DNA from: Dimorphilus gyrociliatus
Lineage: Eukaryota; Animalia; Annelida
Reading direction: 5' to 3'
Assembly: GCA_904063045.1 (NCBI GenBank)
Contig: CAJFCJ010000088.1
Span: 1 to 45,496 of the forward strand
Length of the DNA: 45,496 bases
The stretch's first letter is position 1; each line of letters starts with the position of its first letter. The translations under genes and the position numbers were made by a program. Below the pieces are notes generated by a model. The model was given only the letters and a program-made list of their open reading frames with translations. It was not told the origin of the DNA and made no database searches. Shown one piece after another: positions 1 through 37,814 of the stretch.

Positions 1-1496
1 AATAGAGCAGATGCATTAACAAGATTAGAAGAATATACACCCCCAAGGAAAGTAACATTTGAAGAGCTAATTCATGGAAAGATCAAAAAGGAGAATTCTC
101 CCTCTATTTCAGTTAAAATGGAACAGTATGAACATACACCAGAGTTAACTTTTGTAGCTACCAGTGATAACAGTGAAGAGAAAATTGATTTGTCTTCTGT
201 TGACTTACAGTCAGAGCAAGAAAAAGATGTGAATTTAAAATCAATTAAAGAATATTTAACATGGATGGTCAGCTACCTATTCCTTATTTTGGAACTTTTA
301 CACCTTTCATAATGGAGATGTTTGTTCACAAGGAAATGATCTGGATTATCCTTGAAGAAAGAAACATTCTGGTTTTACCTGACCATTTGATGCTAACTCT
401 GCTCCCTAAATTCCATAAAAATAAAATTCACAATCACCATGGACCCAGAATGACATTACAAATAATTACAAAGACCTTTTGGCACCCAAAATTAAAGATT
501 ATGATTGAGAATTCAATAAAGGATTGCACTTTGTGTGAACAAATGAATGGTAGGAGTAGAGTATACCCTTTGGTAGAAACCTTTCACCCTGCATCACCAA
601 TGGAGTTGGTAGCCATGGATATAATGGGACCCTTACCCATGGTTAAGTCATACAGATTCATACTTGTGATAGTGGATCATTTCAGTAGATACACAGTTTT
701 ATATGCACTCAAACAGCAAACCAGTAAAGAAATTGCAAACCTTCTTTTCAACAGATTTTTTCCCATTTTTGGAATTCCAAAACAAATGTTGACAGATCAA
801 GGAAGAAACTTTGTTGGTAAAGCTTTTAAAGAGTTTATGAAGGTATTAGGTATTGAGAAAATCCAAACAACAGCTTATAGAAGCCAGAGCAATGGACTAG
901 TTGAACGAAGAAATAGAGAAGTGAGGAAGGAAATCAATAAATTAGTGGTGGAAGAAAATCAGCATAACTGGGTTGCAAACCTACCCTTGATTCAAGCATT
1001 TTTGAATCAATCACCTGTAGGAAGTACAAGACTACCACCCCAGGAACTTCTTTTTGGCACCAGCACAAGAACACTGATTGATGTAACAATGCATACTACC
1101 TCTCCTGAAACAAATGTACTATTTGTATTCAATCACCAGCAGCAATTAGTACAGTTAAGAGCTACAGCCTTCTGTAAATCCATCATGGCAAAAGAACAAT
1201 ATAGGGAAAGAAAGAATAGAAATCTCAATCTTCCAAAATATTTTGAGGTTGATGATGAAGTATTCTTAAGAAATGATGCTGCAAGAATTGCAATAACAAA
1301 AATCCCTTCTTTAAAATGGTTAGGCCCATACCGAATAACAAAAGTCAATCATCAAAAGTGGATATATGAAATACAAATGGATGATAATACATGCAAGTTG
1401 GTACATGGTAGCAGATTAAGACTAGCCAATGAATCTAATAAGTTGGAAACAGGGAAGAAGCAACAACAATCTTTCACCTTGTGGAGAAGGAAATAA
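1..1496 (+). CDS. pol: pol 3' part: RNase H end, linker and integrase (1-nt indel near 260)
   Basis: HHCC finger (HNHHG...CTLCEQ), DDE motifs (VAMDIMGP, TDQGRNF, SNGLVERRN) and GPY motif (KWLGPYRI). Confidence 0.95.
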
Positions 1497-1890
1497 CACA
1501 CCTCCAATATCTTTCTCAGGTAGAAGGAAGAAATGACTTCCAATTCCGTTTGAAGAATCAAAAAGGCAAGAAGTCATTGCCTTGTGTGACACAGGAGCAT
1601 TGAGATCCTTTATTACTGAAAAAGAAATCAAGTTAATGGATGTTACAATTATGGATAAAGAAACAATTGGCTTACCAATTATAACTTCAGCTGATGGGAA
1701 AGCTTTAAAGCAAAAAGGAAGCGTAAAGCTGAATATCCAATTTGCTGGAGAAAGTATGGAACAAGAATTTATAGTTATGGAAAATCTAGACATAGCAATA
1801 ATACTTGGTTGTGATTTCCTACAAACTGTGGGAGCAAACCTCAATTTTGAAGCTAAACAGTGTTCTCTCAAATTTGATAGAAGGAAAGGG
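1450..1890 (+). CDS. Second retroviral-type aspartic protease domain (PR2) directly after integrase
   Basis: ALCDTGALRSFI (DTG at 1588-1596) and IILGCDFL (about 1801-1821). The upstream extension EITHLQYLSQVEGRNDFQFRLKNQKGQEVI is in frame in copies 2 and 3; copy 1 lacks one C near 1567. Confidence 0.92.
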
Positions 1891-2184
1891 AACCTGGCTG
1901 AAAGAATAAGGCAACCTCAACTAAACAAAGTCACTATAGCCATGATGGGACAGCATGACTCTTCATCAGAAAGTTCAGATAGTGATGACTCAGAGATGGA
2001 AGTTACTAATTCTGATACTGGTTATGACACAAGCAATACTTTCAAAACAGACAGTAATTACAGTCTCAATGAACCTTCAAGCTCATCTGAAAGTGATGAC
2101 ACAGAAACAAATAATGAACTGGATCAAAATACAGATTCAGAGGCAAACATTATCTCTGATAGAGAAGATGAAATACCTAGTTCA

Positions 2185-2310
2185 GACGATGAGTCAATAA
2201 TTATTGAAAGCGAAATTATTGATATAACCCATTCGGATAATGAGTCAATAATTATTGAAGGTGAAATTATTGACATAACCCATTCGGATAATGAGTCCCT
2301 CATAGTGGTA
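2185..2310 (+). repeat. 51-nt (17-aa) coding tandem repeat DNESIIIEGEIIDITHS, about 2.4 units, within an acidic spacer
   Basis: Units start at 2185, 2236 and 2287. The same repeat is present in copies 2 and 3. Confidence 0.95.
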
Positions 2311-2523
2311 GATTCATCCCAAGATGAGAAAGAAAATACAAGTGACACAGACAATGAGTCAGTCATATTTTTAGATGAGACTAAAATCATCTCTGAACAA
2401 TTAGATTCCCAACAAGAAGTGGAACCACAATATATAGAGTTAGAAGATGGAATAACTATCAGAGTGGAACAACAACACAAAATTTTCAACCATTCAACTA
2501 TAGCCAACACAGGAAGAGCTAAC

Positions 2524-4944
2524 ATGAAACAGATGTTGTGGCTTCCACTAGTGATGACTGTAATGGTGATCTGTGGCTGCATCCACTCAATAACAGTCCC
2601 AAAACCATCCTACCAAGGTGCCCATGTTACAAGTGCAAACATTACCTTAACATTTAAACCACCATTATACTTTTGTTCTAACCAACTACCAAGCCAGGCA
2701 TTTGATCTAGCAGATGAGCCAACTTGTAATATAGAATCACAAGAAACCAAGACAATTACAGCTGATATCTATGAATTGAACTTGGAAGAAATTGAAACAA
2801 GAGCAGTAAAATGTCAAGTGTATCTAAGAACTAATTTTTACACTTACTATTTCTTTGGAGCAAAGAAGAGGAGGATTGTTAACTCAGTTATCAAAGTAAC
2901 TCATGATCAATGCAGACAGATGATAAAAGACAAACGATCTTTTCAAGGAAAACCTTTAATGGTGAAAAGAAACACTTGGATCCACCAAGATCAGTTTCCT
3001 GCTGCCTACACATGGCCAACAACGACCAAGGTGCTGGAATACACCACAATTATCCAGTTTGGCAAAGCATATTGGCAACCTCCTAATATGAAAATTACAA
3101 CTAATCTGGACTACCTGGAAGATTGTTTACCAGGGCAGTCCTATTGTGAAACAGAAGAGGCAATTATTGTCTTTAGGAACCTCAAGAATAATTACACACT
3201 TGGGCAACAATCACCATGGATAAAAATTAGCAACAGAATTAGTTGTATCAAATTTGCTGGTCACTATTCTTGTCCAGGGTATTCTATTCTGGACATCCCT
3301 TATCAAGATAAGTTTATTGATGGAATTGGTGGTCCTGGAACAAAAGTACTAGTACCACTGGAGGAACAGAGTTTAATACAGGAAACAAGCAAGGAACACC
3401 TATACAATTTGCTACAATATCAGAAGATTGGCAAAAATGAAGAAAAACGACTATTAAACTATCCCAATAAAGTTAAAGAACAAATTATACTATACAAGCG
3501 AAACAACCCCTTACCAAGTCTTAACCAATGGTACAGAGAAACAAACACAAAGTATAAACTAATGAGAAATAAAGGCACACTCAAGGAAGTTGTGATATAT
3601 CATCTACAACAACCCATTAGTCCATCTTACTGGGAGCTGGATAACTATTATATCCAAGAAATGCTGCAAGCAGTCAATTGGACAAGGGCAACAAGACAAT
3701 CTGTCACGATTTCAAAATATGTATACAGTGAGAAAAGAATCAAAAAGAAGGTATTACCAACATTGGGCATATGGTATAAAGGACCACCAGCCAGAGAATT
3801 TAAGATTACCTATGAAGGAATTTATTTTACTCTACACATGAGAATGGCTAAAAAGCAGATGAAGAAGGAAGCAAAACTGAAACATAAGATAAGTAAAAAC
3901 CCATACCACAAATTCCCATTGGAAATGAGAGAAGCTGCCCAAACATCTACCTTACTACATGGTATTGATTCAAATTTTAAGAATTTAAAAAAGTTTACCC
4001 AACAGCTGTCAAGTCTTCTCTGCAATCAATTTGTTCAAAGAAGCAGAATGATGGCATTACTAGCAAATTTGGATCCTCAATTGACCACAGTGTTAACAAA
4101 TGAGTTGGGAATGCACAGTAGTCAGATGGGAGAATTAGCTATAATTAAACAATGTTCACCAATAGCCTCAACAGAAGTAGTTTGTGACTTAAGCATGATA
4201 AAAAAGAATAACAAATGTTCTCAATTTTTACTTGTCACCATGAACAACCTGCTTTTCCAAGTAGAACCAGTTACTCATGTTTTACAGCAAGTCAATCCTG
4301 AAGAGATTACCTATAATGAGTGTAAGTCTAACAAGTTATTCTACAAAACAACTCACAACCCATTAAATCCTATAAGAAACCAACCAATGAAAGACAAAAC
4401 GTATGTGTATTATTCAGAAAGAGGATGCAGATTTCACACTGTGTCTGCAAAATCCATGCAGTTACATATCCACAATCACCTTTCTGAACCAAAAATTGAA
4501 ATTGCCAGATTAGCTGATCTACTCCACCATGGGGTAAAGAAGGATATTGCATACCAGCACTCAAAAATTAAGCAAGTTATCAGTTCACTGGAACAGAAGC
4601 AGGCAAGGTATGATAACATGGTCACTGTTGCAGAGAAAAATGGCATTGTACCCAATTTATCTGGAATTAAAAAGTTTTTCCATAGTTGGTACTATAAACC
4701 TGGGAAAACACTTTATGTTATCATACGAAATATTTGTTTGAGTATTGTAGTGTCAATGGTATGTATCATCATTTTCAACTATATTATTGGAAGAAGAAAA
4801 CAAAGAGAAGAAATTGCTACCCCAAGTGAGAGCACAGATAACTCTCCTGAAAACCCAAAACTAATGAAACAAAGTTGTAGCTTTAGTCAACATCAAACTA
4901 ATGAAGAAGAACAACCACCTGTAATTCTCATTAAATCAAGATGA
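2524..4944 (+). CDS. env: Env-like type I membrane glycoprotein, class III viral fusogen-like
   Basis: Signal-like MKQMLWLPLVMTVMVICGCIHS, Cys-containing ectodomain, N-glycosylation sequons (NIT, NYT, NWT, NLS), TM segment YVIIRNICLSIVVSMVCIIIFNYII followed by GRRKQR. Position between IN and the PPT is typical of env. Open in frame with PR2 (ORF 1582-4944). Confidence 0.85.
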   Translation: MKQMLWLPLVMTVMVICGCIHSITVPKPSYQGAHVTSANITLTFKPPLYFCSNQLPSQAFDLADEPTCNIESQETKTITADIYELNLEEIETRAVKCQVYLRTNFYTYYFFGAKKRRIVNSVIKVTHDQCRQMIKDKRSFQGKPLMVKRNTWIHQDQFPAAYTWPTTTKVLEYTTIIQFGKAYWQPPNMKITTNLDYLEDCLPGQSYCETEEAIIVFRNLKNNYTLGQQSPWIKISNRISCIKFAGHYSCPGYSILDIPYQDKFIDGIGGPGTKVLVPLEEQSLIQETSKEHLYNLLQYQKIGKNEEKRLLNYPNKVKEQIILYKRNNPLPSLNQWYRETNTKYKLMRNKGTLKEVVIYHLQQPISPSYWELDNYYIQEMLQAVNWTRATRQSVTISKYVYSEKRIKKKVLPTLGIWYKGPPAREFKITYEGIYFTLHMRMAKKQMKKEAKLKHKISKNPYHKFPLEMREAAQTSTLLHGIDSNFKNLKKFTQQLSSLLCNQFVQRSRMMALLANLDPQLTTVLTNELGMHSSQMGELAIIKQCSPIASTEVVCDLSMIKKNNKCSQFLLVTMNNLLFQVEPVTHVLQQVNPEEITYNECKSNKLFYKTTHNPLNPIRNQPMKDKTYVYYSERGCRFHTVSAKSMQLHIHNHLSEPKIEIARLADLLHHGVKKDIAYQHSKIKQVISSLEQKQARYDNMVTVAEKNGIVPNLSGIKKFFHSWYYKPGKTLYVIIRNICLSIVVSMVCIIIFNYIIGRRKQREEIATPSESTDNSPENPKLMKQSCSFSQHQTNEEEQPPVILIKSR

Positions 4945-4960
4945 AGGGACTCATCTTCAC

Positions 4961-4974
4961 AAAGAAGGGGGAAG
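4961..4974 (+). promoter_or_regulatory. Polypurine tract (copy 1)
   Basis: AAAGAAGGGGGAAG, 1 nt before the TG of the 3' LTR. Confidence 0.9.
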
Positions 4975-4975
4975 T

Positions 4976-5610
4976 TGTACAACTTTGGTTATATTTTACA
5001 TGCTTGAACTCTATTATTTTATGCAACATATACATGTACATCTTAAAACCTACGCAAGAAAATGCTATAACATTGGCCAAACATAAGTCTGATTAGTCAG
5101 CTTGAAGGCTCATCTTTAATTACCAATAAAGGTTTGGCCAGGTTATAATTTAATTAACTTGCCTAGGGTGTGGCCAAGTTATAATTCAATTAACCTTCCT
5201 AAATGTTGAACCTTGTAACATCCTGTTACTAAAGATAAATATGAACTACACATTTCGGCAACTGTAAAGTGATGATTGGATGTCAGAGACAAACCTCAAA
5301 GTATATAAATTCTCATTATTCTCATTTGGCATGCAGCTTCCATCTGGACCCAAGGACCTGGGAAAATCATCTGGAAACAACCTCCACTGGAACCATCCAT
5401 CTACTCCTCAACATTAGAAGACAGTTTGGTAATTTGGCAACCTGCTTTTACAAACTATCTACTCTGCTATCGAACTCTGATATTGTTACTTGCTTAAGTA
5501 TTATTATTGCGAATAAACCATTTTAATTTAAACATTTGTTTAAAGGTTCGAGTAGAACCAGTATTGTTATAACTTGCAAACACATAGATTTTGCCAGCAA
5601 GAGCAGTACA
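4976..5610 (+). repeat. 3' LTR of copy 1 (635 bp)
   Basis: TGTAC...GTACA termini, TATATAAA at 5302-5309, AATAAA at 5512-5517. Five copies in the window. Confidence 0.97.
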
Positions 5611-7345
5611 AGATAATATGAAATATTTACTTGAAATGCTTGTAAGTATGCTTTGGTATGCTTTGAAGTCAGAAAAATAAAAACAAGAGGAACTTGCTTC
5701 ATATCACCACTCTTCTTAACAAATGAGTGAATAGTGACAAGTTGATAAAATGGTTCTTTTACAATCTTGAAAGTACCATCAATGTACCAACAGTTGGATT
5801 TTGATAATAAATTCAGCTGATGGTTTGTTGCAAAGATTAAAATTCTTTCTCCATTTTCACAAATATCTTTCTGCAAAAATTCATCAGGCAAAAATGTTTC
5901 ATCTAAATTAAAGTTGTACACTTTAGGTTCCACTGGCCTAAACTTTTGTCTATTTGAGTTTGCCATTCTCTTCAAATAGTTGATATCAGGAAGACAAGTT
6001 GCATTGGGTTCATAGGATAGAAGAACTTTTTCAGCAATGCTTCTTCCAGATGTTTGATTATCACTTCTGCAAACAATTTTCAAATCTGTTTTCACTTTAA
6101 TATCCACTTCTAAATTCTTTTTTCTGTTGTGATTATGTTCCAAATTGCCTTTGAGAAATAAATTTCCATTTTGTCTTATTCTGGCCACACATCTTTTCTT
6201 CTTACTTCTCACACTGCACACCCAAATAGTACTTGATGGTGTTTTATGTTTAACAACAAAAGAATATCCATCATTCAGTAAAATGTCATGTCCCTTTCTA
6301 CTTCCTCCTTTTACAATCTCAAAATCACTTTTTGTGGATGATTCACAATATTCTTCAGCATTCTCTTCAACTTCCTCCAAAGAGTCTAGGTCCATTGATT
6401 GGCATTCTGAAAGAACATGATTTTCATCCTCCAATATTGATTCCTCAACTGCAGCAATCTTATTTCTTTCATCAATAAAGCTTTCTTCAGAATTTACTTT
6501 GAATTGATGAATTTCCAGATTAGTTAACTTCTTGAGCATGACAGTACATTTTCTTTTGTTACAAGGTTTGCAAATTGGTATGTTATGTGTTTCTATAAGA
6601 ATATGTTAAAAAATATAATTACATGAAAGCTGATTAAAGAGTTACATACCTGTGCATTTCCTATGAATAAGATTCTTACAAAGGCTGCATTTCAAATATT
6701 TTTGCCTTCCATAAATTGTTGAATGACAATTGTGACATTTGAAAGCCATTTTTTAATCTTCAATCAAATGTAGATGGTTATCTAAAAATATTTCCAGTTA
6801 TCAATAAATTTCCTTTCCAAATATTCAAAATGGCTGAAATTTTATTTATGAAAAATATTCAGCTTTTTCACAATTGAAGATAGTATATTACATCAAAATA
6901 TCATGAATCAACAATCTCAATGATTAGATATAAATACTCACTTCTGTTGAAGCTTCCAAGAAGAACTTTGTCCAAATTTATTCAGTAAATATAGCTTTAC
7001 TTTTGCAAGGATAAATATTCCAAGTGAAAGTTTATTTAATAAAACTATCACTATTAAAATGGCTGCTATTTCACTTTCAACAACATTTTCTTTTAAAGTA
7101 GTAATTTAATATTGATGGGATATGTATTCTATTTAATATCTGCATTCTATCAAATCAATATATTAACAAATATATAATGAAGGAACAGAAGGAAAAAAGG
7201 GTGTCAATGTACATGTTTATTCAAAAATTCAAAAATAAAATAAATATAAAAATAGGGTGCGAACGTACCTGGGTACGTTCGCACCCGCCCAGGGTACGTT
7301 CGCACCCGGGTACGTTCGCACCCAGGTACGTTCACACCCGACCCC
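5611..7345 (-). mobile_element. FLYWCH-MULE (Mutator-like) DNA transposon, 5' half, truncated at the LTR
   Basis: FLYWCH finger (GYSFVVK...WVCSVRSKKKRCVARI...HNH) and MULE first catalytic motif (WYIDGTFKIVKEPFYQL). Terminal 15-mer array at 7255-7345. The reading frame meets a GTAAAT intron start about 20 bp before the LTR end. Confidence 0.85.
7255..7345. repeat. Terminal array of the 15-mer GGTACGTTCGCACCC (4 direct copies, 1 inverted)
   Basis: Inverted copy at 7255-7269; direct copies at 7272, 7293, 7309 and 7325. Confidence 0.92.
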
Positions 7346-7852: not shown

Positions 7853-8487
7853 TGTACAACTTTGGTTATATTTTACATGCTTGAACTCTATTATTTTATG
7901 CAACATATACATGTACATCTTAAAACCTACGCAAGAAAATGCTATAACATTGGCCAAACATAAGTCTGATTAGTCAGCTTGAAGGTTCATCTTTAATTAC
8001 CAATAAAGGTTTGGCCAAGTTATAATTTAATTAACTTGCCTAGGGTGTGGCCAAGTTATAATTCAATTAACCTTCCTAAATGTTGAACCTTGTAACATCC
8101 TGTTACTAAAGATAAATATGAACTACACATTTCGGCAACTGTAAAGTGATGATTGGATGTCAGAGACAAACCTCAAAGTATATAAATCCTCATTATTCTC
8201 ATTTGGCATGCAGCTTCCATCTGGACCCAAGGACCTGGGAAAATCATCTGGAAACAACCTCCACTGGAACCATCCATCTACTCCTCAACATTGGAAGACA
8301 GTTTGGTAATTTGGCAACCTGCTATTACAAACTATCTACTCTGCTATTGAACTCTCATATTGTTACTTGCTTAAGTATTATTATTGCGAATAAACCATTT
8401 TAATTTAAACATTTGTTTAAAGGTTCGAGTAGAACCAGTATTGTTATAACTTGCAAACGCATAGATTTTGCCAGCAAGAGCAGTACA
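7853..8487 (+). repeat. 5' LTR of copy 2 (635 bp)
   Basis: Same sequence and termini as the other LTRs. Confidence 0.97.
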
Positions 8488-8491
8488 AATT

Positions 8492-8509
8492 TGGCGCAGT
8501 CGACAGGAT
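8492..8509 (+). promoter_or_regulatory. Primer binding site complementary to a tRNA-Ser-type 3' end
   Basis: TGGCGCAGTCGACAGGAT, 4 nt after the LTR. Its reverse complement ATCCTGTCGACTGCGCCA resembles eukaryotic tRNA-Ser(AGA/UGA) 3' ends (from recall, not searched). Confidence 0.8.
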
Positions 8510-8547
8510 ATTCTTTTGGTTTATTCAAAAGTTTTGAGAAAGTAAAT

Positions 8548-11500
8548 ATGGCAGAAGGAGGAAATGGAAACGCCACTGGGGCAGTTACAGACTCTAACCC
8601 TTCAACCCCAGCAACTCCAACAATTACAATTCAGCCAGCAGGAATGTCAGAAAGGCAACAAAGACTAATTGAAGACTATGATAGATTGGTGAGTGAAATG
8701 AAAAGAAATCGAATCACAATTCCAACAGATCATGGAGATGGAACACATCACCCAGCACAGAACCCAAATGTTGATATCACAACAGTAATTCAAGCATTAA
8801 GGGCTGCTTGGGACCGCCCTCAAAGAACTATTCTCAAGTTGTATGATGGAAGCAAGGAGTGTTCAAAATTCAAAGAAGACTTTAATCAGGCATGTTATGC
8901 TTATGGTTGGATAGGAGAAGATGTTGTGAAAGCAAATCTTTTAGATTATTTAACTGGTCCTGCAAAGGATTTGGTGTTGGCTCTGGATGGAGAGCCTACT
9001 GTGGAGGAAATATGGAAAGCCCTCCATGACGAATTTGATCTAGATCCTTTGGAGTATCAGGAGAAATTGCTTAACTTAAAGCAAATGAATGGCGAAAGTG
9101 TGGTTCAGTTTGTTAATAGAGCAAAGAAATTGATAAAGAGGTTTTCTCCACCTAGACCAATGGAACCACAATTGCTTGCAACTATGAAAGAAATAAAACT
9201 GATGGAAGTTTTACAAAGAGGATTACAACAGGATATTCTACATTTAGTGTACACCTTACATCCTAAATGTCAAACATTGGCAGAACTATATGAGGCTGCT
9301 AAGCAAGCAGAAACTTCATTAAAACTAACTCAAAGAAAACTGATCACAATGGTGTCAAAATTGGAAACTCAACAAAGAAAAGAGACCAAAAAGACCCAGG
9401 TAATCAGAAAAGATGCTTCTACAGAAACCCCAAATTTCTGGAATAGAAAGCATGTACCTGACAACAAAAATGCTACTAAAGAAAAGTTTTCAAGCCAAAA
9501 AGTCCAAAAGTATGCACCAACTACAACAAATAGGTATTATAAGAAAAATCAACCAGCAAAGACGATACTGAAAGAGGAACCTAAGCTACAAAAATTAGAA
9601 ACATTAGACAATGAAAGCATGTCAGAAAACGACGAAGTTCAAGATATTCTCTGTTTTTCAGATAGTGACGAATCCACTTGTCAGCTGTTACAAAGCAAAC
9701 AATCTGAGCGAAATGCTTCAACATTTATTGGACAATTTGAAACTAATACTGGTTTTAAGTTTGATGCCTTGATAGACTCTGGTAGTGACAGATCTTTCAT
9801 TTCAAAAAAGGTATTAAGACAAGTTCAAGGAAAAGCATCCTTCCCAGAACAAACTGTGAAAAATGCTAGAGATGCTTCAGGAAATAGCATCGAGATATGT
9901 GGAGAAATCATTCTCAGACTTTATTTTAATGAAAAGATTATTAAACAACGCTTTCTGATCAACAAAATCATTACACAACAATGTATTATTGGGTGTGACT
10001 TTCTACAACAAAATGGAGCTACCCTTGACTTTGGCAAGAGACAGATTATACTCCAGCCAGGTACAGAAAAGAATTACCCTGTTGGAACACAACACTTATC
10101 TTTCAAAGGGTTTTACCCAGTTCCTCTTATTATGAAAAAGAATGAGAGTCAAATACATACCCTTCAGACAACAATTGAACAAGAAAATCCCGAGATGAAG
10201 AACAAAGTTACCCAAATTCTGGCAAAATATAAAGAAACTATTGCAGAAGACAGATTTGATATTGGCAATCCAGAGGTACCACCCTTGGAAATAACTCTTG
10301 AACCAGGTTCAACACCATATAGACAAAGGCCATATAGAATGCCTCCTCAAAAACAAGAAGAATGTAAGCAACAGATAGCTGAATTGGTAAAAAGCAAAGT
10401 TATTCAACCAAGCAAGAGCAATTGGGCTTCACCAATTGTTTTCGTAAGAAAGAAGGAAGGTAGTCTACGAATGTGTGTAGATTATAGAAAACTAAACAAA
10501 ATGACAGTTAAAAACAAGTATCCACTGCCAAATCAAGATGATCTTTTTGACCATTTGGGAGGAGGAAATAAATTCTTTTCTACAATGGATTTGACAAGTG
10601 CATACCATCACATTAACATCAAGAAAGAAGATAGGTCTAAAACAGCATTTATTACACCTTTTGGCTTGTTTGAATTTATTAAGATGCCTTTTGGATTAAC
10701 CAATGCCCTCCTCATTTTAGTTATGTAATGAATTCATTTGTGCTAAAGGATGTAAAGCATTTGTGCCTAAACTACCTTGATGACATAATAATATTTACCA
10801 AGTCGCTGGACCAACATTGGGAAGCATTGGAGACCATTCTTCAACAGATTCAAAAGTACAATTTTAAGATTAAACTAAGTAAATGTGTGTTTTTGAAAGA
10901 ACAAGTTCAATTCTTGGGACACATTGTATCAGAAAAGGGGATTGAAACAGATAGTCCAAGACAGATAAATTATATAATTTACAGCCACCAGTGTTTGCAA
11001 ATTCACTACTAAGCTTTGTTGCATTTTGTGGCTATTACAGAAATTTATACAAGATTTTGCAAGAGTAGCTAAACCTCTGTATATGTTAATGAAACTACAT
11101 GGGAAAAAGGATAAATTGCAATGGACTGAGGAAGCCAAGCAATCATTTTTCAAGTTGAGAGATGCAGTAGTTAACCCTCCTGTATTACAACTACCTGATT
11201 TTGCTAAAGATTTTCAACTTAACAACAGATGCATCGAATGTAGCTGTAGGAGGAGTTCTTGAACAAGTTTATGTAGATGAAATGGGAAGAAAACAATGAA
11301 ACCCATTGCCTACGCTTCAAAACAATTCAACAATAATCAAATGAAATATGCAGCCTATCAAAAGGAAGCATTTGGGTTTACTGGGTTGTAAAGAAATTTT
11401 TACATTACCTTCCAAGACAAGCCATTCTTTTTATATACTGACCATCAGAGTCTAGTACAAACATTTAAGCAAAACAAATTGAATGTCAGCACAGCAAAAT

Positions 11501-13060
11501 GGGTCATGGCTTTAATGGATTTAAAATTTACAATTAACTATGTGACAGGACGAAAAAATAGAGCAGATGCATTAACAAGATTAGAAGATATACACCCCCA
11601 AGGAAAGTAACATTTGAAGAGCTAATTCATGGAAAGATCAAAAAGGAGAATTCTCCCTCTATTTCAGTTAAAATGGAAACAGTATGAACATACACCAGAG
11701 TTAACTTTTGTAGCTACCAGTGATAACAGTGAAGAAAATTGATTTGTCTTCTGTTGACTTACAGTCAGAGCAAGAAAAAGATGTGAATTTAAAATCAATT
11801 AAAGAATATTTAACATTGGATGGTCAGCTACCTATTCCTTATTTTGGAACTTTTACACCTTTCATAATGGAGATGTTTGTTCACAAGGAAATGATCTGGA
11901 TTATCCTTGAAGAAAGAAACATTCTGGTTTTACCTGACCATTTGATGCTAACTCTGCTCCCTAAATTCCATAAAAATAAAATTCACAATCACCATGGACC
12001 CAGAATGACATTACAAATAATTACAAAGACCTTTTGGCACCCAAAATTAAAGATTATGATGAGAATTCAATAAAGGATTGCACTTTGTGTGAACAAATGA
12101 ATGGTAGGAGTAGAGTATACCCTTTGGTAGAAACCTTTCACCCTGCATCACCAATGGAGTTGGTAGCCATGGATATAATGGGACCCTTACCCATGGTGTA
12201 AGTCATACAGATTCATACTTGTGATAGTGGATCATTTCAGTAGATACACAGTTTTATATGCACTCAAACAGCAAACCAGTAAAGAAATTGCAAACCTTCT
12301 TTTCAACAGATTTTTCCCATTTTTNATTTATATGCACTCAAACAGCAAACCAGTAAAGAAATTGCAAACCTTCTTTTCAACAGATTTTTCCCATTTTGGA
12401 ATTCCAAAACAAATGTTGACAGATCAAGGAAGAAACTTTGTTGGTAAAGCTTTTAAAGAGTTTATGAAGGTATTAGGTATTGAGAAAATCCAAACAACAG
12501 CTTATAGAAGCCAGAGCAATGGACTAGTTGAACGAAGAAATAAGAAGTGAGGAAGGAAATCAATAAATTAGTGGTGGAAGAAAATCAGCATACTGGGTTG
12601 CAAACCTACCCTTGATTCAAGCATTTTGAATCAATCACCTGTAGGAAGTACAAGACTACACCCAGGACTTCTTTTTGGCACCAGCACAAGAACACTGATG
12701 ATGTAACAATGCATACTACCTCTCCTGAACAAATGTACTATTTGTATTCAATCATCAGCAGCAATTAGTACAGTTAAGAGCTACAGCCTTCTGTAAATCC
12801 ATCATGGCAAAGAACAATATAGGGAAAGAAGAATAGAAATCTCAATTTCCAAAATATTTTGAGGTTGATGATGAAGTATTCTTAAGAAATGATGCTGCAA
12901 GATTGCAATAAAAAAATCCCTTCTTTAAAATGTTAGGCCATACCGAATAACAAAAGTCAATCATCAAAAGTGGATATATGAAATACAATGGATGATAATA
13001 CATGCAAGTTGGTACATGGTAGCAGATTAAGACTAGCCAATGAATTAATAAGTTGGAAAC
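8548..13060 (+). CDS. gag-pol: gag-pol (CA, PR, RT, RNase H, IN), interrupted by indels after about 10700
   Basis: ATG at 8548. CA/MHR-like LKQMNGESVVQF, PR LIDSGS (9775-9783), RT WASPIVFV, VDYRKLN, MPFGL, YLDD, RNase H TDAS and TDH, IN DDE. Gag and PR-RT are in one frame. Confidence 0.93.
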
Positions 13061-16000
13061 AGGGAAAGAAGCAACAACATCTTTCACCTTGTGGAGAAGG
13101 AAATAAACACCTCCAATATCTTTCTCAGGTAGAAGGAAGAAATGACTTCCAATTCCGTTTGAAGAATCAAAAAGGCCAAGAAGTCATTGCCCTGTGTGAC
13201 ACAGGAGCATTGAGATCCTTTATTACTGAAAAGAAATCAAGTTAATGGATGTTACAATTATGGATAAAGAACAATTGGCTTACCAATTATAACTTCAGCT
13301 GATGGGAAAGCTTTAAAGCAAAAAGGAAGCGTAAAGCTGAATATCCAATTTGCTGGAGAAAGTATGGAACAAGAATTTATAGTTATGGAAATCTAGACAT
13401 AGCAATAATACTTGGTTGTGATTTCCTACAAACTGTGGGAGCAAACCTCAATTTTGAAGCTAAACAGTGTTCTCTCAAATTTGATAGAAGGAAAGGGAAC
13501 TGGCTGAAAGAATAAGGCAACCTCAACTAAACAAAGTCACTATAGCCATGATGGGACAGCATGACTCTTCATCAGAAAGTTCAGATAGTGATGACTCAGA
13601 GATGGAAGTTACTAATTCTGATACTGGTTATGACACAAGCAATACTTTCAAAACAGACAGTAATTACAGTCTCAATGAACCTTCAAGCTCATCTGAAAGT
13701 GATGACACAGAAACAAATAATGAACTGGATCAAAATACAGATTCAGAGGCAAACATTATCTCTGATAGAGAAGATGAAATACCTAGTTCAGACGATGAGT
13801 CAATAATTATTGAAAGCGAAATTATTGATATAACCCATTCGGATAATGAGTCAATAATTATTGAAGGTGAAATTATTGACATAACCCATTCAGATAATGA
13901 GTCCTCATAGTGGTAGATTCATCCCAAGATGAGAAAGAAAATACAAGTGACACAGACAATGAGTCAGTCATATTTTTAGATGAGACTAAAATCATCTCTG
14001 AACAATTAGATTCCCAACAAGAAGTGGAACCACAATATATAGAGTTAGAAGATGGAATAACTATCAGAGTGGAACAACAACACAAAATTTTCAACCATTC
14101 AACTATAGCCAACACAGGAAGAGCTAACATGAAACAGATGTTGTGGCTTCCACTAGTGATGACTGTAATGGTGATCTGTGGCTGCATCCACTCAATAACA
14201 GTCCCAAAACCATCCTACCAAGGTGCCCATGTTACAAGTGCAAACATTACCTTAACATTTAAACCACCATTATACTTTTGTTCTAACCAACTACCAAGCC
14301 AGGCATTTGATCTAGCAGATGAGCCAACTTGTAATATAGAATCACAAGAAACCAAGACAATTACAGCTGATATCTATGAATTGAACTTGGAAGAAATTGA
14401 AACAAGAGCAGTAAAATGTCAAGTGTATCTAAGAACTAATTTTTACACTTACTATTTCTTTGGAGCAAAGAAGAGGAGGATTGTTAACTCAGTTATCAAA
14501 GTAACTCATGATCAATGCAGACAGATGATAAAAGACAAACGATCTTTTCAAGGAAAACCTTTAATGGTGAAAAGAAACACTTGGATCCACCAAGATCAGT
14601 TTCCTGCTGCCTACACATGGCCAACAACGACCAAGGTGCTGGAATACACCACAATTATCCAGTTTGGCAAAGCATATTGGCAACCTCCTAATATGAAAAT
14701 TACAACTAATCTGGACTACCTGGAAGATTGTTTACCAGGGCAGTCCTATTGTGAAACAGAAGAGGCAATTATTGTCTTTAGGAACCTCAAGAATAATTAC
14801 ACACTTGGGCAACAATCACCATGGATAAAAATTAGCAACAGAATTAGTTGTATCAAATTTGCTGGTCACTATTCTTGTCCAGGGTATTCTATTCTGGACA
14901 TCCCTTATCAAGATAAGTTTATTGATGGAATTGGTGGTCCTGGAACAAAAGTACTAGTACCACTGGAGGAACAGAGTTTAATACAGGAAACAAGCAAGGA
15001 ACACCTATACAATTTGCTACAATATCAGAAGATTGGCAAAAATGAAGAAAAACGACTATTAAACTATCCCAATAAAGTTAAAGAACAAATTATACTATAC
15101 AAGCGAAACAACCCCTTACCAAGTCTTAACCAATGGTACAGAGAAACAAACACAAAGTATAAACTAATGAGAAATAAAGGCACACTCAAGGAAGTTGTGA
15201 TATATCATCTACAACAACCCATTAGTCCATCTTACTGGGAGCTGGATAACTATTATATCCAAGAAATGCTGCAAGCAGTCAATTGGACAAGGGCAACAAG
15301 ACAATCTGTGACGATTTCAAAATATGTATACAGTGAGAAAAGAATCAAAAAGAAGGTATTACCAACATTGGGCATATGGTATAAAGGACCACCAGCCAGA
15401 GAATTTAAGATTACCTATGAAGGAATTTATTTTACTCTACACATGAGAATGGCTAAAAAGCAGATGAAGAAGGAAGCAAAACTGAAACATAAGATAAGTA
15501 AAAACCCATACCACAAATTCCCATTGGAAATGAGAGAAGCTGCCCAAACATCTACCTTACTACATGGTATTGATTCAAATTTTAAGAATTTAAAAAAGTT
15601 TACCCAACAGCTGTCAAGTCTTCTCTGCAATCAATTTGTTCAAAGAAGCAGAATGATGGCATTACTAGCAAATTTGGATCCTCAATTGACCACAGTGTTA
15701 ACAAATGAGTTGGGAATGCACAGTAGTCAGATGGGAGAATTAGCTATAATTAAACAATGTTCACCAATAGCCTCAACAGAAGTAGTTTGTGACTTAAGCA
15801 TGATAAAAAAGAATAACAAATGTTCTCAATTTTTACTTGTCACCATGAACAACCTGCTTTTCCAAGTAGAACCAGTTACTCATGTTTTACAGCAAGTCAA
15901 TCCTGAAGAGATTACCTATAATGAGTGTAAGTCTAACAAGTTATTCTACAAAACAACTCACAACCCATTAAATCCTATAAGAAACCAACCAATGAAAGAC

Positions 16001-16549
16001 AAAACGTATGTGTATTATTCAGAAAGAGGATGCAGATTTCACACTGTGTCTGCAAAATCCATGCAGTTACATATCCACAATCACCTTTCTGAACCAAAAA
16101 TTGAAATTGCCAGATTAGCTGATCTACTCCACCATGGGGTAAAGAAGGATATTGCATACCAGCACTCAAAAATTAAGCAAGTTATCAGTTCACTGGAACA
16201 GAAGCAGGCAAGGTATGATAACATGGTCACTGTTGCAGAGAAAAATGGCATTGTACCCAATTTATCTGGAATTAAAAAGTTTTTCCATAGTTGGTACTAT
16301 AAACCTGGGAAAACACTTTATGTTATCATACGAAATATTTGTTTGAGTATTGTAGTGTCAATGGTATGTATCATCATTTTCAACTATATTATTGGAAGAA
16401 GAAAACAAAGAGAAGAAATTGCTACCCCAAGTGAGAGCACAGATAACTCTCCTGAAAACCCAAAACTAATGAAACAAAGTTGTAGCTTTAGTCAACATCA
16501 AACTAATGAAGAAGAACAACCACCTGTAATTCTCATTAAATCAAGATGA
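13061..16549 (+). CDS. env: PR2, acidic spacer and env of copy 2 (indels in the PR2/spacer part; env intact)
   Basis: ORF 13910-16549 matches the copy 1 protein over its C-terminal 878 aa. DTG motif near 13198. Confidence 0.88.
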
Positions 16550-16565
16550 AGGGACTCATCTTCAC

Positions 16566-16579
16566 AAAGAAGGGGGAAG
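16566..16579 (+). promoter_or_regulatory. Polypurine tract (copy 2)
   Basis: AAAGAAGGGGGAAG before the 3' LTR. Confidence 0.9.
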
Positions 16580-16580
16580 T

Positions 16581-17215
16581 TGTACAACTTTGGTTATATT
16601 TTACATGCTTGAACTCTATTATTTTATGCAACATATACATGTACATCTTAAAACCTACGCAAGAAAATGCTATAACATTGGCCAAACATAAGTCTGATTA
16701 GTCAGCTTGAAGGTTCATCTTTAATTACCAATAAAGGTTTGGCCAAGTTATAATTTAATTAACTTGCCTAGGGTGTGGCCAAGTTATAATTCAATTAACC
16801 TTCCTAAATGTTGAACCTTGTAACATCCTGTTACTAAAGATAAATATGAACTACACATTTCGGCAACTGTAAAGTGATGATTGGATGTCAGAGACAAACC
16901 TCAAAGTATATAAATCCTCATTATTCTCATTTGGCATGCAGCTTCCATCTGGACCCAAGGACCTGGGAAAATCATCTGGAAACAACCTCCACTGGAACCT
17001 TCCATCTACTCCTCAACATTGGAAGACAGTTTGGTAATTTGGCAACCTGCTATTACAAACTATCTACTCTGCTATTGAACTCTCATATTGTTACTTGCTT
17101 AAGTATTATTATTGCGAATAAACCATTTTAATTTAAACATTTGTTTAAAGGTTCGAGTAGAACCAGTATTGTTATAACTTGCAAACGCATAGATTTTGCC
17201 AGCAAGAGCAGTACA
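16581..17215 (+). repeat. 3' LTR of copy 2 (635 bp)
   Basis: By eye, differs from the 5' LTR at one site (ACCTTCC vs ACCATCC). Confidence 0.97.
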
Positions 17216-25813: not shown

Positions 25814-26448
25814 TGTACTGCTCTTGCTGGCAAAATCTATGAGTTTGCAAGTTATAACAATACTGGTTCTACTCGAACCTTTAAACAAATGTCTAAATTA
25901 AAATGGTTTATTCACAATAATAATACTTAAGCAAGTAGCAATATGAGAGACTGATAGCAGAGTAGATAGTTCATAAAAGCAGGTTGCCAAATTACCAAAC
26001 TGTCTTCTAATGTTTAGGAGTAGATGGATGGTTCCAGTGGAGGTTGTTTCCAGATGATTTTCCCAGGTCCTTGGGTCCAGATGGAAGCTGCATGCCAAAT
26101 GAGAGTAGTGAGGATTTATATACTTTGAGGTTTGCCTCTGACATCCAATCATCACTTTACAGTTGCCAAAATGTGTAGTTCATATTTATGTTTAGTAAGA
26201 GGATGTTACAAGGTTGAACATTTAGGAAGGTTAATTGAATTATAACTTGGCCACACCCTAGGCAAGTTAATTAAATTATAACTTGGCTAAACCTTTATTG
26301 ACAATTAAAGACGAGCCTTCAAGCTGACTAATCAGACTTATGTTTGGCCAATGTTATAGCATTTTCTTGCATAGGTTTTAAGATGTACATGTATAAGTTG
26401 CATAAAATAATAGAGTTCAAGCATGTAAAATATAACCAAAGTTGTACA
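25814..26448 (-). repeat. Solo LTR of the same family, inverted (635 bp), more diverged
   Basis: Reverse complement of the LTR. No PBS or PPT adjacent. Flanks GTTAG and ATCTA do not match. Confidence 0.95.
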
Positions 26449-29740: not shown

Positions 29741-31664
29741 GGGGTCAGGACAATTCGGTCTGGGACAATTTGGCCTGTTTTGGGACAATTCGGTTTGTTT
29801 TGGAACAATTCGGTCTGTTTTTGGGACAATTCAGCCTGTATTTAAATTAAGAAAATTACACTTTTTTTAAAACTCAAACAATATATAACACCAGTTTATT
29901 TCATTATGTAATGGAACTGTTACCAGTTTTTTTGTGTATATTTTATTTCTTTAACTCCAGTGAAAGCTTTTTTGATTTTAAAGAACTAAAAATTGATTAT
30001 TAATTGATAATATTAAAGTGTGAAAAAAGAAAATTCAATTGTACATAATGAATTTAAAAACATGCTGGTTGTGTACAAAGAAATTTTATTGGAATCAACA
30101 GAAAGTAAGATGCAAACTTTGCAAGCATTTTTATCATAGAAAGTGTTTGAAAAGTAAGTAAATATTTTTCTTTTCTTTCCTTTTTGTAAAACTTACATAT
30201 CTTTAATCAGAAAATGATTATTGTGTTGATTGCTTCAATGTTAGAAGACAAAAAGTTTTAATTAAGTTAAGAAAAATTGTTGAGAAAAAAAATGAAAGTC
30301 ATTCAAATGAAAGTCAAAATGAACTGGGTGCTATGAATAATGAACAATTTCATGAAGAAAATCAACAAGTAAATAACTTGTAACTTTTCTCAGTTGAAAA
30401 ATTGTTAAAATTTTGTTATTTCAGTTGAGACTATCCTTCAATTTTGAAAATTGTATTGAGGATCTATCTGAAGAAGAAAATAATAATTCAAATAACTGTG
30501 ATCAAGATCAAAGAGTTGACATTCAAGATGAAGTATCATTTGATACAAGCAAGGAAATAAGTGTTTATGAAGCAAATGAAAATGATTTTGAAATTGTCAA
30601 GAATGGAAGTAAAAGAGGAAAAGATATTTTATTGCATAATAATTTTTCCTTCTCACTAAAAACAAAAAGCTCTAACATTTGGAGGTGTTCACAAAGATCT
30701 AAAAATGAGACCTGTAATGCTTATATTATTCAAAAAGGTTCAAAATTTCTAATAAAAATCCTAAAGTTGATTTACAAGGATGTGCTTTCCATTTTAAGCA
30801 ATCAATTTTCAGAAACATTCAGGTATTATTAATTCAAAATTAAAGTATAAATAATTTTTAGCCTTTTTTTTGCAGAAGCTGGGTTATATCAATGACTATA
30901 ATAATAAAAACTATGGAGGAAAAATGCTGAGAAAACTCATGTGTCTCTCATATATCCCACATAAATGCATTGTTTCAACATTTAATGAAATAAAGTATGA
31001 ACTCTTAGAGAAAAATTTATATGGAGATTTAGTAGATTATATGGAAAGGACCTATATCTATAGCAACATTTGGAAACCAAAGTATTGGTCTGTGTACAAC
31101 ATGACCATCAGAACTAACAATAATGTTGAAGGATGGCACTGCAGACTAAATACAGCAGTAAGAGCAAATGAAAATTTCTACAATCTTGTAAATGAATTAG
31201 CCAGAGAAGCTGATTTAATTACAATTTATAAGAAGCTACTTTCTGAAAACAAGTTAAAGGGAATGCAAAGAATAAAACAAGCCTACCTATAATCTAAAAT
31301 ATTTAATTTATGGGACAACTTGGAAACTAATAAAATCACTTTAGATAATCTTTTAGATAGATTAGCGGAGTTAAACATTGCATGATTATTAAGTTTAATA
31401 GTAGTTGTTTGTAATTTTGTGTTTTTTTTGTATGTTTTGCTTGTAGTGTTTTGATATTTAACATTCTATACATCAATAGCAAATATTAATAAAGATAAAC
31501 ATTGTTCAAATTACAGTTTTGAATATAAATTTATAGGTTAAATTGTCCTGAAAAGGCTGGATTGTCTCAAAATTCACTGAATTGCAAATAGGCCGAATTG
31601 TCCCAAAAACAGGCTGAATTGTCTCAAAAACAGGCCAAACTGTCCCAGGCTGAATTGTCCCTAC
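29741..31664 (+). mobile_element. Internally deleted FLYWCH-MULE nested in the Tc1 transposase
   Basis: FLYWCH (WRCSQRSKNETCNAYI) and RTNNNVEGWHCRLN. Inverted terminal arrays of GGGACAATTCGG-like repeats. 11-bp direct repeat ATGGCCCATTC at 29730-29740 and 31665-31675. Confidence 0.85.
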
Positions 31665-32606
31665 ATGGCCCATTCCATCATACAAGTTTGGAAGCAACTC
31701 TGGATTCTTCTTTATGAGCTCATAGGAACACTGTTTAATTTTTTCCCATAATTCATCCTCTGACTCAAACTGTTGCCCATCCTAGACCATTGTTTTTGTT
31801 AGGTGCCACATGTTTTCGATCAGGCTAAGGTCGGGGCTCCTTGCTGGCCAATCAATGGTCTTAATTTCATTTTTTTTAAAGGCCCTTGCTGTTGCTCTTG
31901 CTGTATGGCAGCCAGCATTATCTTGCTGGAAGATGTACTTCCTGCCCATTTTTACCTCAATCTCTTCTATAACAGGAAGAACATCTTCCACAATGAAGGA
32001 GCTATAAATTTCTGCATTTAATCTTTTCTTTATCATCCATAATTCAAATATGCTGTCAGATGTGATCAACCCCCAGACCAATACTCTGCCTCTTCCCATA
32101 TTTTTCGTCACCCTAAAGTCCTCTTGGCTATTGTTGGTCCAGGTCCTAAAGTCATCAGGTCCACTTAGTGAGAATCTAGCCTCATTGGTGAAAATTACTC
32201 TAGACCAGTCTAGATTATCACTAATCATTTTGAGGCAATATTCTTTTCGCCAGTTACAATCTTTAGAGGTGAGATCTGTTCTTTGCCTGATTCTAGTATT
32301 TGAAATTTTGCCTTTTTAGCTCCCTCTAACATGGTTCTAACATTTACATCTACTTCTAATTCTTTCAAAACCTTTGCTGCTGTCACCCTTTGCTTATTAT
32401 CTTTCAGCTTCTTGATGATCCTTTTCATCCTGGCTATCTCTCTGTCTGAAAGCTTCTTCCCTATTGTCTTGCTCTGGCTCTTTATAGTTGATGGTGTTTC
32501 TTACTGATGATGATGCCATTCCTAAAACCCATGCCATGGCCCTTAATTTCCCTATTTCTGCATATTTTCTGACTATGAGCTCTCTAATATCTTTATTCCA
32601 CACCAT
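31665..32606 (-). pseudogene. Tc1 DD34E transposase pseudogene (last 9 codons lie at about 29700-29730 beyond the nested MULE)
   Basis: VIFTNEARF (first D changed to N), FQQDNA and WPARSPDLSLIENMW with 34 residues between D and E. Frameshifts and an in-frame TAG near 31782. Confidence 0.88.
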
Positions 32607-36400: not shown

Positions 36401-37119
36401 TTTCTATATTCTCCATCTAAACATTGAACAAATTCAATGGATTCTAGAGTTTTAGTGTCATACTTATGTTTTTTCTTCTTCAGTTCCGGTTTCAGACAGT
36501 CTGATAATTTTTCTAGGTATTGAACTTGCTGTTCTGTTGTAAAATTCTTGAAATGTTTTAAAATATATTTTTCAAAGAAGTAGACTTGTGAAACAAGCTT
36601 GGCTTCATCTTGAAGTAAAAATTTTCCAATATAAGAATCCTTGTATATTTTATAGTCTAGAATTTCAATATTATCATTAGATTTCCACAAATTATCATTT
36701 GTAAAGTCAGAACTCAAACTATTGTCCAAGAAATAAATAATCTTATTATTTAAAGATATAAATTTGTTATCAATTGTTTTAAAAATTGGTAAATGAAGTA
36801 GCTTTTTATTACAATTCTCTTCTTCAAGTTTTAAAAGCCCACAAAATATATTATTTAAATGTTTTTTTTCCAACTTTTCATAATTTAGTTTTGGTAAAAT
36901 ATTTCCATCATATAATGTTAAACACAATATAAAATCAGAAGTGTTATGATAACTGGAAAAAATGAAATTTTGAAAATTTTGTAAAAGTTTCACTAAAATC
37001 TCATTGTTGATTGGTTGAAAAATATTTAAATTTTTAATTATTTCATAATTTTCAACACAAATTGCTCTACCATACTTTATGCCAATAATGTAACTTTTGT
37101 CTGCCGATTCACAAGGTAG
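33463..37119 (-). CDS. Sacsin-like protein, C-terminal part with HEPN domain, interrupted by the copy 3 LTR
   Basis: About 960-aa open exon, then small exons: PSPFCAKQYIELAKDDLQAV...WALYKCHQ | 73-bp GT-AG intron 33730-33802 | ACEKALK...SHNLRYL...LRY. This matches the sacsin HEPN pattern. Orthology to SACS is not established. Confidence 0.7.
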
Positions 37120-37754: not shown

Positions 37755-37758
37755 AATT

Positions 37759-37776
37759 TGGCGCAGTCGACAGGAT
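37759..37776 (+). promoter_or_regulatory. Primer binding site (tRNA-Ser type)
   Basis: TGGCGCAGTCGACAGGAT. Confidence 0.8.
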
Positions 37777-37814
37777 ATTCTTTTGGTTTATTCAAAAGTT
37801 TTGAGAAAGTAAAT

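Follow-up and report, generated by a model that had tools for sequence, protein, structure and literature searches.

A second predicted protease between integrase and a class III envelope in a Ty3/Gypsy retroelement of Dimorphilus gyrociliatus, very likely Dingle

The stretch of Dimorphilus gyrociliatus DNA analyzed here, 45,496 nucleotides in length (the window), contains an LTR retroelement with the order Gag-PR1-RT-RH-IN-PR2-acidic spacer-signal peptide-class III ectodomain-TM. The element is a recently multiplied Ty3/Gypsy, very likely the same as the published Dingle and Annelida_Polychaeta_Dgyr_errantivirus_1. The larger claim, that of a new enveloped Gypsy type using a class III fusogen, has already been published; the second protease, PR2, and the acidic spacer of about 180 residues are undescribed in the available text of both publications. 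We propose, giving the idea an even chance, that in this element, where PR2, spacer and class III envelope follow pol and likely form one polyprotein with it, PR2 frees the cytosolic Gag-Pol from the membrane-anchored envelope precursor.

Three copies, 99% identical and all on the forward strand, were present in the window. Copy A (positions 1–5610) was cut by the window start and lacked Gag to RT; it retained the integrase, the PR2-acidic-env segment and the 3′ LTR. Copy C (37,120–45,496) extended from the 5′ LTR through most of env, the end of which was cut off by the window end. The first-pass annotation had described the full domain order in three near-identical copies; the order and the near identity were real, and the whole order was visible in copy B (7853–17,215) only, the segment IN-PR2-acidic-env being common to all three. 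Its proposal of a recently active Ty3/Gypsy lineage was borne out as regards recent multiplication. Copy B was bounded by two LTRs of 635 bp starting with TG and ending with CA, the 5′ LTR at 7853–8487, with an internal 36-bp tandem pair, and the 3′ LTR at 16,581–17,215. A single mismatch distinguished the two. The reverse strand carried a further LTR of this family (25,814–26,448), solo and older, with 26–28 differences to any one of the four others.

The domain coordinates below refer to copy B and the forward strand unless stated otherwise. The primer binding site, of tRNA-Ser type (8492–8503), was a 12-mer identical to that of 26 of the 1,512 listed errantiviruses, 25 of these 26 being labelled Ser. 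The capsid-like Gag (8548–9690, end approximate) started with an ATG at position 8548 and matched Pfam PNMA below the cut-off (E 2e-4). PR1 (9691–10,130, limits approximate) had its DSG at 9775, a weak Pfam RVP match (E 0.002, below the cut-off) and ASPRV1 structures as matches at E 2e-4. RT and RNase H (10,131–11,600; Pfam RVT_1 and RT_RNaseH; YLDD at 10,773) were frameshifted in copy B; in copy C, Gag-PR1-RT-RH formed a single open frame of 996 codons, followed by IN, PR2 and the acidic spacer. The integrase (11,950–13,050) comprised H2C2 (Pfam Integrase_H2C2), the core (Pfam rve) and a C-terminal domain, and included the assembly seam of copy B. Pfam matches above the cut-offs were obtained for RT (1e-33), RNase H (2e-21), the integrase core (2e-13) and H2C2. 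A polypurine tract was recognized in the sequence at 16,566–16,579. The hallmarks of Ty3/Gypsy (Metaviridae) were thus present: TG..CA LTRs, primer binding site, polypurine tract and the order PR-RT-RH-IN. The RT of copy C gave best PDB matches at E 1e-76 and 1e-75, the second being the Ty3-G Gag-Pol, as compared to 9e-40 for the next distinct polyprotein (a ranking by similarity, not a tree). Membership of BEL/Pao (Belpaoviridae) was ruled out by the YLDD motif and the Ty3-like RT.

Single-base indels frameshifted every copy, and homopolymers accounted for 11 of 16, 23 of 28 and 11 of 14 of them across the three copies. Copy B in addition contained an N at position 12,325 with a duplicated seam of about 72 bp. 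No target-site duplication was seen around the solo LTR or around copy B, which carries the seam; for copies A and C a single flank is available. The N, the duplicated seam and the missing duplication together indicate that the two halves of copy B may derive from two different loci. A contig of short reads (run X1, record 4) covered 9933–15,554, and the linkage of pol, PR2 and env is therefore independent of this seam. The codon phase of pol was carried into env in all six contig pieces tested (runs X1–X5), which makes a single polyprotein for pol and env likely, equal phase being also compatible with an in-frame stop or with compensating shifts. Run X6 yielded short pieces only (9 of 30 bins). 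Since the IN frame ends before PR2 in copies A and C, a programmed -1 frameshift at this place was considered but not retained: the point falls in a homopolymer in which the copies differ, and one phase was kept in all three contigs spanning 1100–2700.

Two proteases had been announced by the first-pass annotation, and both aspartic-protease motifs proved to be intact, LIDSGS at 9769 in PR1 and LCDTGA at 13,192 in PR2. PR2 (13,120–13,485, limits approximate) had its DTG at 13,198, unaltered in the three window copies, and exceeded Pfam cut-offs in copy A (RVP_2, E 5e-6, 26.7 bits for a cut-off of 20.3) and in copy C (gag-asp_proteas, E 1e-6, 29.6 for a cut-off of 28.2). PR1 and PR2 shared 31% identity with an alignment score of 119, the maximum in 2,000 shuffles being 63; PR2 probably stems from a duplicated PR1 or close relative. 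In contigs of a sister family (runs X3, X4 and X5), 14 of the 22 differences counted across PR2 fell on third codon positions (p = 0.0035), and no change was seen at the catalytic codons in the sister contigs covering them, among the rows listed (40 of 61). This pattern suggests that PR2 is maintained in the diverged sister family, its catalysis being predicted. Record 10 of run X4 retained PR2 and the spacer's far end, separated by 727 bases instead of 580. The dominant contig of run X5 (depth 678) was missing exactly 60 bases (20 codons) of PR2, in frame and just past the catalytic loop. No undeleted PR2 contig of the same family was found among the X5 contigs listed, contigs being prone to drop rare variants. 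The existence of this variant argues against a strict need for PR2, which is likely helpful and not strictly required.

The D. gyrociliatus gene model P0017 contained a PR2-like piece (60% over 107 aa) in which the hydrophobic motif between PR2 and spacer was kept. Among 70 candidates (proteins of 275–875 aa), the only named relative of PR2 came from the same host species. No related locus was detected in the viral contigs scanned with PR2-env, PR2, P0012, P0004 and RT, or in the metagenome contigs scanned with IN. The spacer (13,545–14,086), defined by its Ser/Thr-rich acidic composition, consisted of 181 amino acids with 29% D/E, 3% K/R and 25% S/T, and included a 51-bp tandem repeat. It is likely disordered, and had no Pfam match below E 1. 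The Atlas score of PR2 plus spacer was 0.89, a lead only.

The envelope began with an in-frame Met, whose ATG has an A at -3 in copy A, and a signal-peptide-like hydrophobic stretch (14,129–14,200). The ectodomain (14,201–16,309) was followed by a transmembrane helix, a cytoplasmic tail and the stop codon (16,310–16,549), the hydrophobic stretches on either side of it being recognized by hydropathy only. On the strength of its homologue and of structure prediction, the envelope is a class III (gB-like) fusion protein with the gB/rhabdovirus G fold, in agreement with the class III fusogen proposed from the first reading. The homologue P0004 was above the cut-off of Pfam Rhabdo_glycop_FD, and the rows listed in a Foldseek search of the envelope model against PDB were all herpesvirus gB (best E 4.5e-9). 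VIA-align gave Z 9.7 with HSV-1 gB (rmsd 4.1 over 138 residues) and Z 8.4 with Chandipura G. The model is a monomer, partly confident (mean pLDDT 52, pTM 0.33), and it is the fusion domain that carries the structural match; a fold from the single sequence reached pLDDT 33. Atlas features of the envelope scored 0.95 to Monjiviricetes fusion clusters. For the envelope, nothing was found at near or longer lengths in a set of 5.8 billion sequences, and phmmer with the envelope alone returned no PDB match at E<=10.

Dingle (Dinophilidae Gypsy-like elements) was described as a Ty3/gypsy LTR element of D. gyrociliatus, with an env downstream of the integrase that resembles gB of CMV and HSV-1 (Martin-Duran et al., Nat Ecol Evol, PMC7854359). 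The window element shares with it the host, the position of env behind the integrase and the gB-like envelope. Dgyr_errantivirus_1 is listed with a gB-type env, the label GAG-POL and 7 copies (Chary and Hayashi, eLife 2026, PMC13524379). The dimensions agreed closely: 635 and 635 bp for the LTR (the other LTR being listed as 630), 4 and 4 for the LTR-to-PBS gap, an identical 12-mer, and 8,681 and 8,684 for the span from LTR end to LTR end. Among the 26 listed errantiviruses sharing the 12-mer, one had a gB-type env. The gene model P0010 contained RT and env pieces of the element; P0010 and P0017 are close relatives of the window element, not identical copies. Matching LTR length, PBS and span, together with these gene-model pieces, make the identity very likely. 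The features of the HSV/gB-type errantiviruses of Chary and Hayashi were also found here, with a class III ectodomain behind pol flanked by a signal peptide and a TM (flanks by hydropathy). A chromodomain at the C-terminus of pol was reported for Dgyr_errantivirus_1 from structure prediction (PMC13524379), whereas Pfam at E<=10 detected only a weak Integrase_p58_C match at the integrase C-terminal part.

The layout had been put forward as a candidate new type, which holds, as far as the available text goes, for PR2 and the acidic spacer and not for the envelope. An already described family of identical domain order had been named there as a refutation, and Dingle / Dgyr_errantivirus_1 very likely provides it in part. 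In the available text of PMC7854359 neither is named, "protease" occurring once (an eggshell digest) and never in 5 supplements; the domain drawing of Extended Data Fig. 3d, like the other figures, is outside this scope and may show PR2. In the available main text of PMC13524379 "protease" occurs once and "acidic" never; PR2 and spacer are not described there, and its figures may show PR2. The first-pass annotation, which took class II/III envelopes to be known mainly from BEL/Pao, erred as to the novelty of the envelope, gB-type class III env being reported to be widespread in Ty3/Gypsy and as abundant as the F-type (PMC13524379).

The publications consulted give no account of how enveloped retroelements with all their proteins in a single frame keep a secretory-pathway fusogen apart from the cytosolic Gag-Pol and adjust the amounts of the two. 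A second protease right at the Gag-Pol/fusogen border is a concrete and testable solution to the separation problem. In our model, Gag-Pol, PR2, spacer and env would be made as one polyprotein, whose internal hydrophobic stretch would be used as a signal sequence; the signal peptidase of the host would then free the ectodomain of Env in the lumen. Gag-Pol would stay tethered to the membrane via the PR2-spacer-signal stub. Tethering would concentrate PR2, favoring early dimerization and cuts at its own flanks, while particle maturation would be left to PR1 at the usual, later stage. The role of the spacer would be that of a flexible linker tolerant of length. The established basis of the model consists of the domain order, both catalytic motifs, the class III fold, the linkage, the phase shared by pol and env in short-read contigs, and the conservation of PR2 in the sister family. 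The family offers natural controls, a sister family keeping PR2 and a variant with part of PR2 deleted. More tentatively, and with doubts outweighing confidence, Dingle might be the first among LTR retroelements to combine two functional proteases in a single polyprotein, the product of a retropepsin duplication, in which an early, membrane-tethered PR2 frees Gag-Pol from the class III envelope precursor and PR1 matures the particle; such a solution would resemble the polyprotein processing of flaviviruses or alphaviruses.

Other explanations were weighed against release by PR2. The env of Drosophila gypsy is expressed from a spliced/subgenomic RNA, and the own in-frame ATG of the present env, placed directly at the signal peptide with an A at -3, makes a separate RNA possible. 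PR2 and spacer would then be a C-terminal extension of Pol, and PR2 an accessory protease of distinct specificity that takes part in maturation, trimming for example the integrase or the Env tail. The Met and hydrophobic stretch at the start of six distant env homologues (P0002, P0004, P0007, P0009, P0011 and P0012; gene-finder starts) point the same way, and the identity of only 31% between PR1 and PR2 would suit an accessory role. However, PR2, acidic spacer and env of copy A form a single open frame of 1,135 codons (1537–4941) with no separating stop; a frame kept open across a low-complexity spacer suggests that read-through matters, and no GT..AG junction was seen among the contig joints listed, in runs not recorded as RNA. 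We consider such a separate env RNA somewhat unlikely.

It is also quite unlikely that PR2 is a redundant or fading duplicate, retained because it is in frame and must fold or be excised by PR1, with dispensable catalysis of its own. The 20-codon deletion in run X5 would be expected in this case, as would the lack of relatives outside the host among the candidate proteins (275–875 aa) and viral contigs. The DTG intact in three of three window copies, the unchanged catalytic codons in the sister rows listed and the third-position bias speak against it, and sister families could supply the function in trans to a copy that has the deletion. The seam in the scaffold of copy B and its lack of a target-site duplication could suggest that PR2-spacer-env is a separate nested element or an assembly chimera. 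This is highly improbable, as the first-pass annotation had argued from three copies with the same arrangement and no internal LTR; single short-read contigs bridging IN to env (runs X1, X3 and X4) and PR1 to env (X1) largely refute it. Release of Gag-Pol by PR2 is the reading that we retain.

Atlas virus (Belpaoviridae) resembles the present element in having env behind pol in a single Gag-Pol-Env polyprotein (described for Atlas virus, PMC9094657; proposed here). It differs by its BEL/Pao lineage, by an RT with YVDN and by a phlebovirus-like env of class II, as opposed to YLDD, a Ty3-like RT and a class III env. No extra protease is described for it in the available text (PMC9094657), so that a second protease is apparently not generally needed. 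In the literature covered, mostly titles and abstract openings, the sole precedent for a second protease was Wendovirus, an endogenous plant pararetrovirus (Caulimoviridae) which likewise combines reverse transcription with a pair of aspartic protease domains (PMC9794742). Wendovirus is listed with a zinc finger, a movement protein, two proteases, RT and RNase H, whereas integrase and env are missing from the list; its two proteases, found in separate ORFs, precede RT, and a duplication is rejected by the authors (PMC9794742). A Wendovirus-type layout, with four ORFs that include a movement protein and with RT preceded by the two proteases, was discarded for the window element, in which integrase, LTRs and env are present and PR2 is located behind IN.

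Self-comparison of the window revealed one repeated element. Copy B (7853–17215) is bounded by two 635-bp LTRs with TG..CA ends, which differ at one position. The first-pass annotation had listed the full domain order in three near-identical copies; the near-identity stands (98.9–99.6%), but copies A (1–5610) and C (37120–45496) are truncated by the window edges. The three pairwise overlaps contained 4, 13 and 7 substitutions and 16, 28 and 14 single-base indels, of which 11, 23 and 11, respectively, lay in homopolymers, a pattern consistent with long-read assembly errors. Because copy B carries a duplicated seam of roughly 72 bp, with an N at position 12325, and no target-site duplication was found in its flanks, its two halves may come from two loci. 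The primer binding site (PBS) starts 4 bases past the 5' LTR and a polypurine tract lies just ahead of the 3' LTR. A solo LTR of the same element (25814–26448, minus strand) showed 26–28 differences from the other LTRs and no target-site duplication; its four upstream bases equal the four downstream of copy A, which may reflect chance or a rearrangement. Each plus-strand LTR contains a 93-codon open stretch (8122–8400 and equivalents), part of which is present in the gene model P0010, with nothing to mark it as a gene.

The envelope is a class III fusion protein, as first proposed. Alone, it gave no Pfam match better than E 0.06 and no sequence match in PDB. A search of 1.84 billion representatives yielded 12 relatives. 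Two of them match the Pfam rhabdovirus fusion domain, one above the cut-off and one below it; one relative weakly matched herpes gB. A profile of the window envelope and 11 of these relatives, without the chimeric gene model P0010, hit four PDB chains that bear the name "Glycoprotein" (E 3–7e-4), which we take to be rabies G. The model built from that alignment had a mean pLDDT of 52, with the fusion domain mostly at 70–90. With this model, Foldseek returned herpesvirus gB in all the PDB matches listed (best E 4.5e-9, with low TM-scores) and, among predicted viral structures, chiefly herpes, nyami-, rhabdo- and chu-like glycoproteins. The top seven VIA-align matches were class III fusogens (HSV-1 gB: Z 9.7, rmsd 4.1 over 138 residues). 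Atlas features gave 0.95 against Monjiviricetes fusion clusters; the recognition value lay under the tool's threshold. The proteins P0012 and P0014–P0016 represent a 631-aa envelope homologue that begins with a signal-like sequence of its own; the four contigs that encode it are 7.4–9.6 kb long. The window envelope has an extra basic segment of some 150 residues (alignment A1, columns about 300–460), which it shares with the homologue P0003 and which more distant homologues lack, with a minimal R-x-x-R motif at residue 717 (copy A frame).

The claimed novelty of a class III envelope in a Ty3/Gypsy element did not survive comparison with the literature. Chary and Hayashi (PMC13524379) report gB-type envelopes as widespread across animal Ty3/gypsy elements, and their Supplementary file 1 lists Annelida_Polychaeta_Dgyr_errantivirus_1 with a gB-type envelope and 7 copies. 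Its second LTR measures 635 bases and its PBS shares all 12 bases with that of the window element; the LTR-to-PBS gap is 4 and the whole spans 8,684 bases, versus 8,681 for the window element when copies C and A are combined by their coordinates. The same PBS occurs in 26 elements of that list, with a gB-type envelope in Dgyr_errantivirus_1 alone. The chromodomain reported there for Dgyr_errantivirus_1 had no Pfam match in the window element. The text of the host genome paper names the family Dingle and likens its envelope to CMV and HSV-1 gB (PMC7854359). Judged by these listed features, the window element is very probably the published Dingle/Dgyr_errantivirus_1. Two Dimorphilus gyrociliatus gene models contain parts of the element, or of elements closely related to it: P0010 (DgyrCDS14789) has RT, envelope and LTR pieces spliced ahead of TSP1/C1q host domains, and P0017 (DgyrCDS14462) a PR2 piece ahead of a domain listed as PF13676. 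These fusions are probably annotation artefacts, possibly exonisation.

RT, RNase H, the integrase core and H2C2 exceeded Pfam cut-offs, and RT–RNase H matched Ty3-G Gag-Pol at E 1e-75. The two proteases announced by the first-pass annotation were confirmed: PR1, upstream of RT, has a DSG motif and a weak Pfam match, and PR2, 3' of the integrase, has a DTG motif intact in all three copies and exceeds a Pfam cut-off in copies A and C. They share 31% identity across 98 residues, with a local score of 119 versus a maximum of 63 among 2,000 shuffles. In their alignment, a hydrophobic stretch and the catalytic Asp are similarly spaced in both, and a hydrophobic motif with a terminal Met lies downstream of each domain; these surrounding stretches are candidate cut sites. 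PR2 is followed by a 181-residue acidic spacer (29% D/E, 25% S/T, 3% K/R). Next in order are a Met with a signal-like hydrophobic segment and the ectodomain, which counts 14 cysteines; another hydrophobic segment lies close to the end of the protein. Copy A has PR2, spacer and envelope together in a single open frame of 1,135 codons.

The stretch was present, wholly or partly, in six runs from three studies (X1–X6), none on record as RNA. A single 5,579-base contig of X1 covers 9933–15554 without the seam duplication, and in X5 another fuses 10497 to 13560, an internal deletion of 3,062 bases between RT and the spacer. Single contigs reach from integrase to envelope in X1, X3 and X4, and the pol codon phase continues into the envelope in six of six pieces tested, judged by contig coordinates, with which an in-frame stop is still compatible. 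It is therefore very unlikely that PR2 and the envelope belong to a nested element, which the first reading had also argued against, or that the arrangement is an assembly chimera. The phase agreement is consistent with a single frame from Gag to Env, roughly 2,650 codons long; a single Gag-Pol-Env polyprotein is known in Atlas virus (PMC9094657). A separate envelope RNA, with PR2 as an accessory protease, is a possible but rather doubtful arrangement. Host signal peptidase cleaves internal signal sequences, and retropepsins function as dimers. We propose that a signal peptidase cut would liberate the ectodomain and leave Gag-Pol tethered to the membrane by PR2, the spacer and the signal stub. 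Since retropepsins work as dimers, PR2 concentrated at the membrane would be placed for early action and release of Gag-Pol, particle maturation being left to PR1. We give this division of labour about an even chance.

That PR2 is instead redundant seems unlikely. In favour of its being maintained, PR2 is covered in X3, X4 and X5 by contigs of a diverged sister family. Among the 40 of 61 table entries listed, 23 sister-family substitutions fell in PR2 and its N-terminal flank; with one at a break dropped, 14 of 22 occupied third codon positions (p=0.0035), and none of the listed changes touched the catalytic codons, covered by two sister contigs. X4 record 10 keeps the PR2 end and the far spacer end, set 727 instead of 580 bases apart, so changes in spacer length are tolerated. 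The gene model P0017 starts with a PR2-like piece (60% identity, 107 residues), in which the hydrophobic motif next to the spacer is also present. Against maintenance, the dominant X5 contig (depth 678) has lost in frame exactly 60 bases directly 3' of the catalytic loop (1616–1675 in copy A, 13226–13283 in copy B), and no undeleted contig of the same family was among those listed for X5. Without these 20 residues the domain would probably not function. The sister family is about 82–86% identical over pieces at 1514–1835 and 2416–2477, and has PR2 and a longer spacer.

PR2 and the acidic spacer seem undescribed. Among 70 candidates of 275–875 aa, one match was found, in the same host, and none outside it; viral contigs yielded no relative, which likewise counts against PR2 being maintained. 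The main text of PMC13524379 has "protease" once, in a standard PRO-RT-RH-IN legend, and "acidic" nowhere; its figures or GitHub files might show PR2. The text of PMC7854359 has "protease" once, unrelated, and its five supplements not at all; its figures might show PR2. Outside most subscription journals and Repbase, the one precedent found for an additional or duplicated protease as sought among LTR elements was Wendovirus (Caulimoviridae; PMC9794742), whose layout is unlike that of the window element.

Between copies A and B, the minus strand encodes a FLYWCH zinc finger and weakly matches a MULE transposase (5523–6605). A 999-codon open frame adjoining copy C (34237–37236, minus strand) had no Pfam counterpart at E<=10 and resembles either an unclassified mobile gene or a large exon of the host. 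A DDE_3 (Tc1/mariner-type) transposase piece (31782–32315, minus strand) lies beside a 75-base inverted repeat pair built of 20–21-base units (29748–31660).
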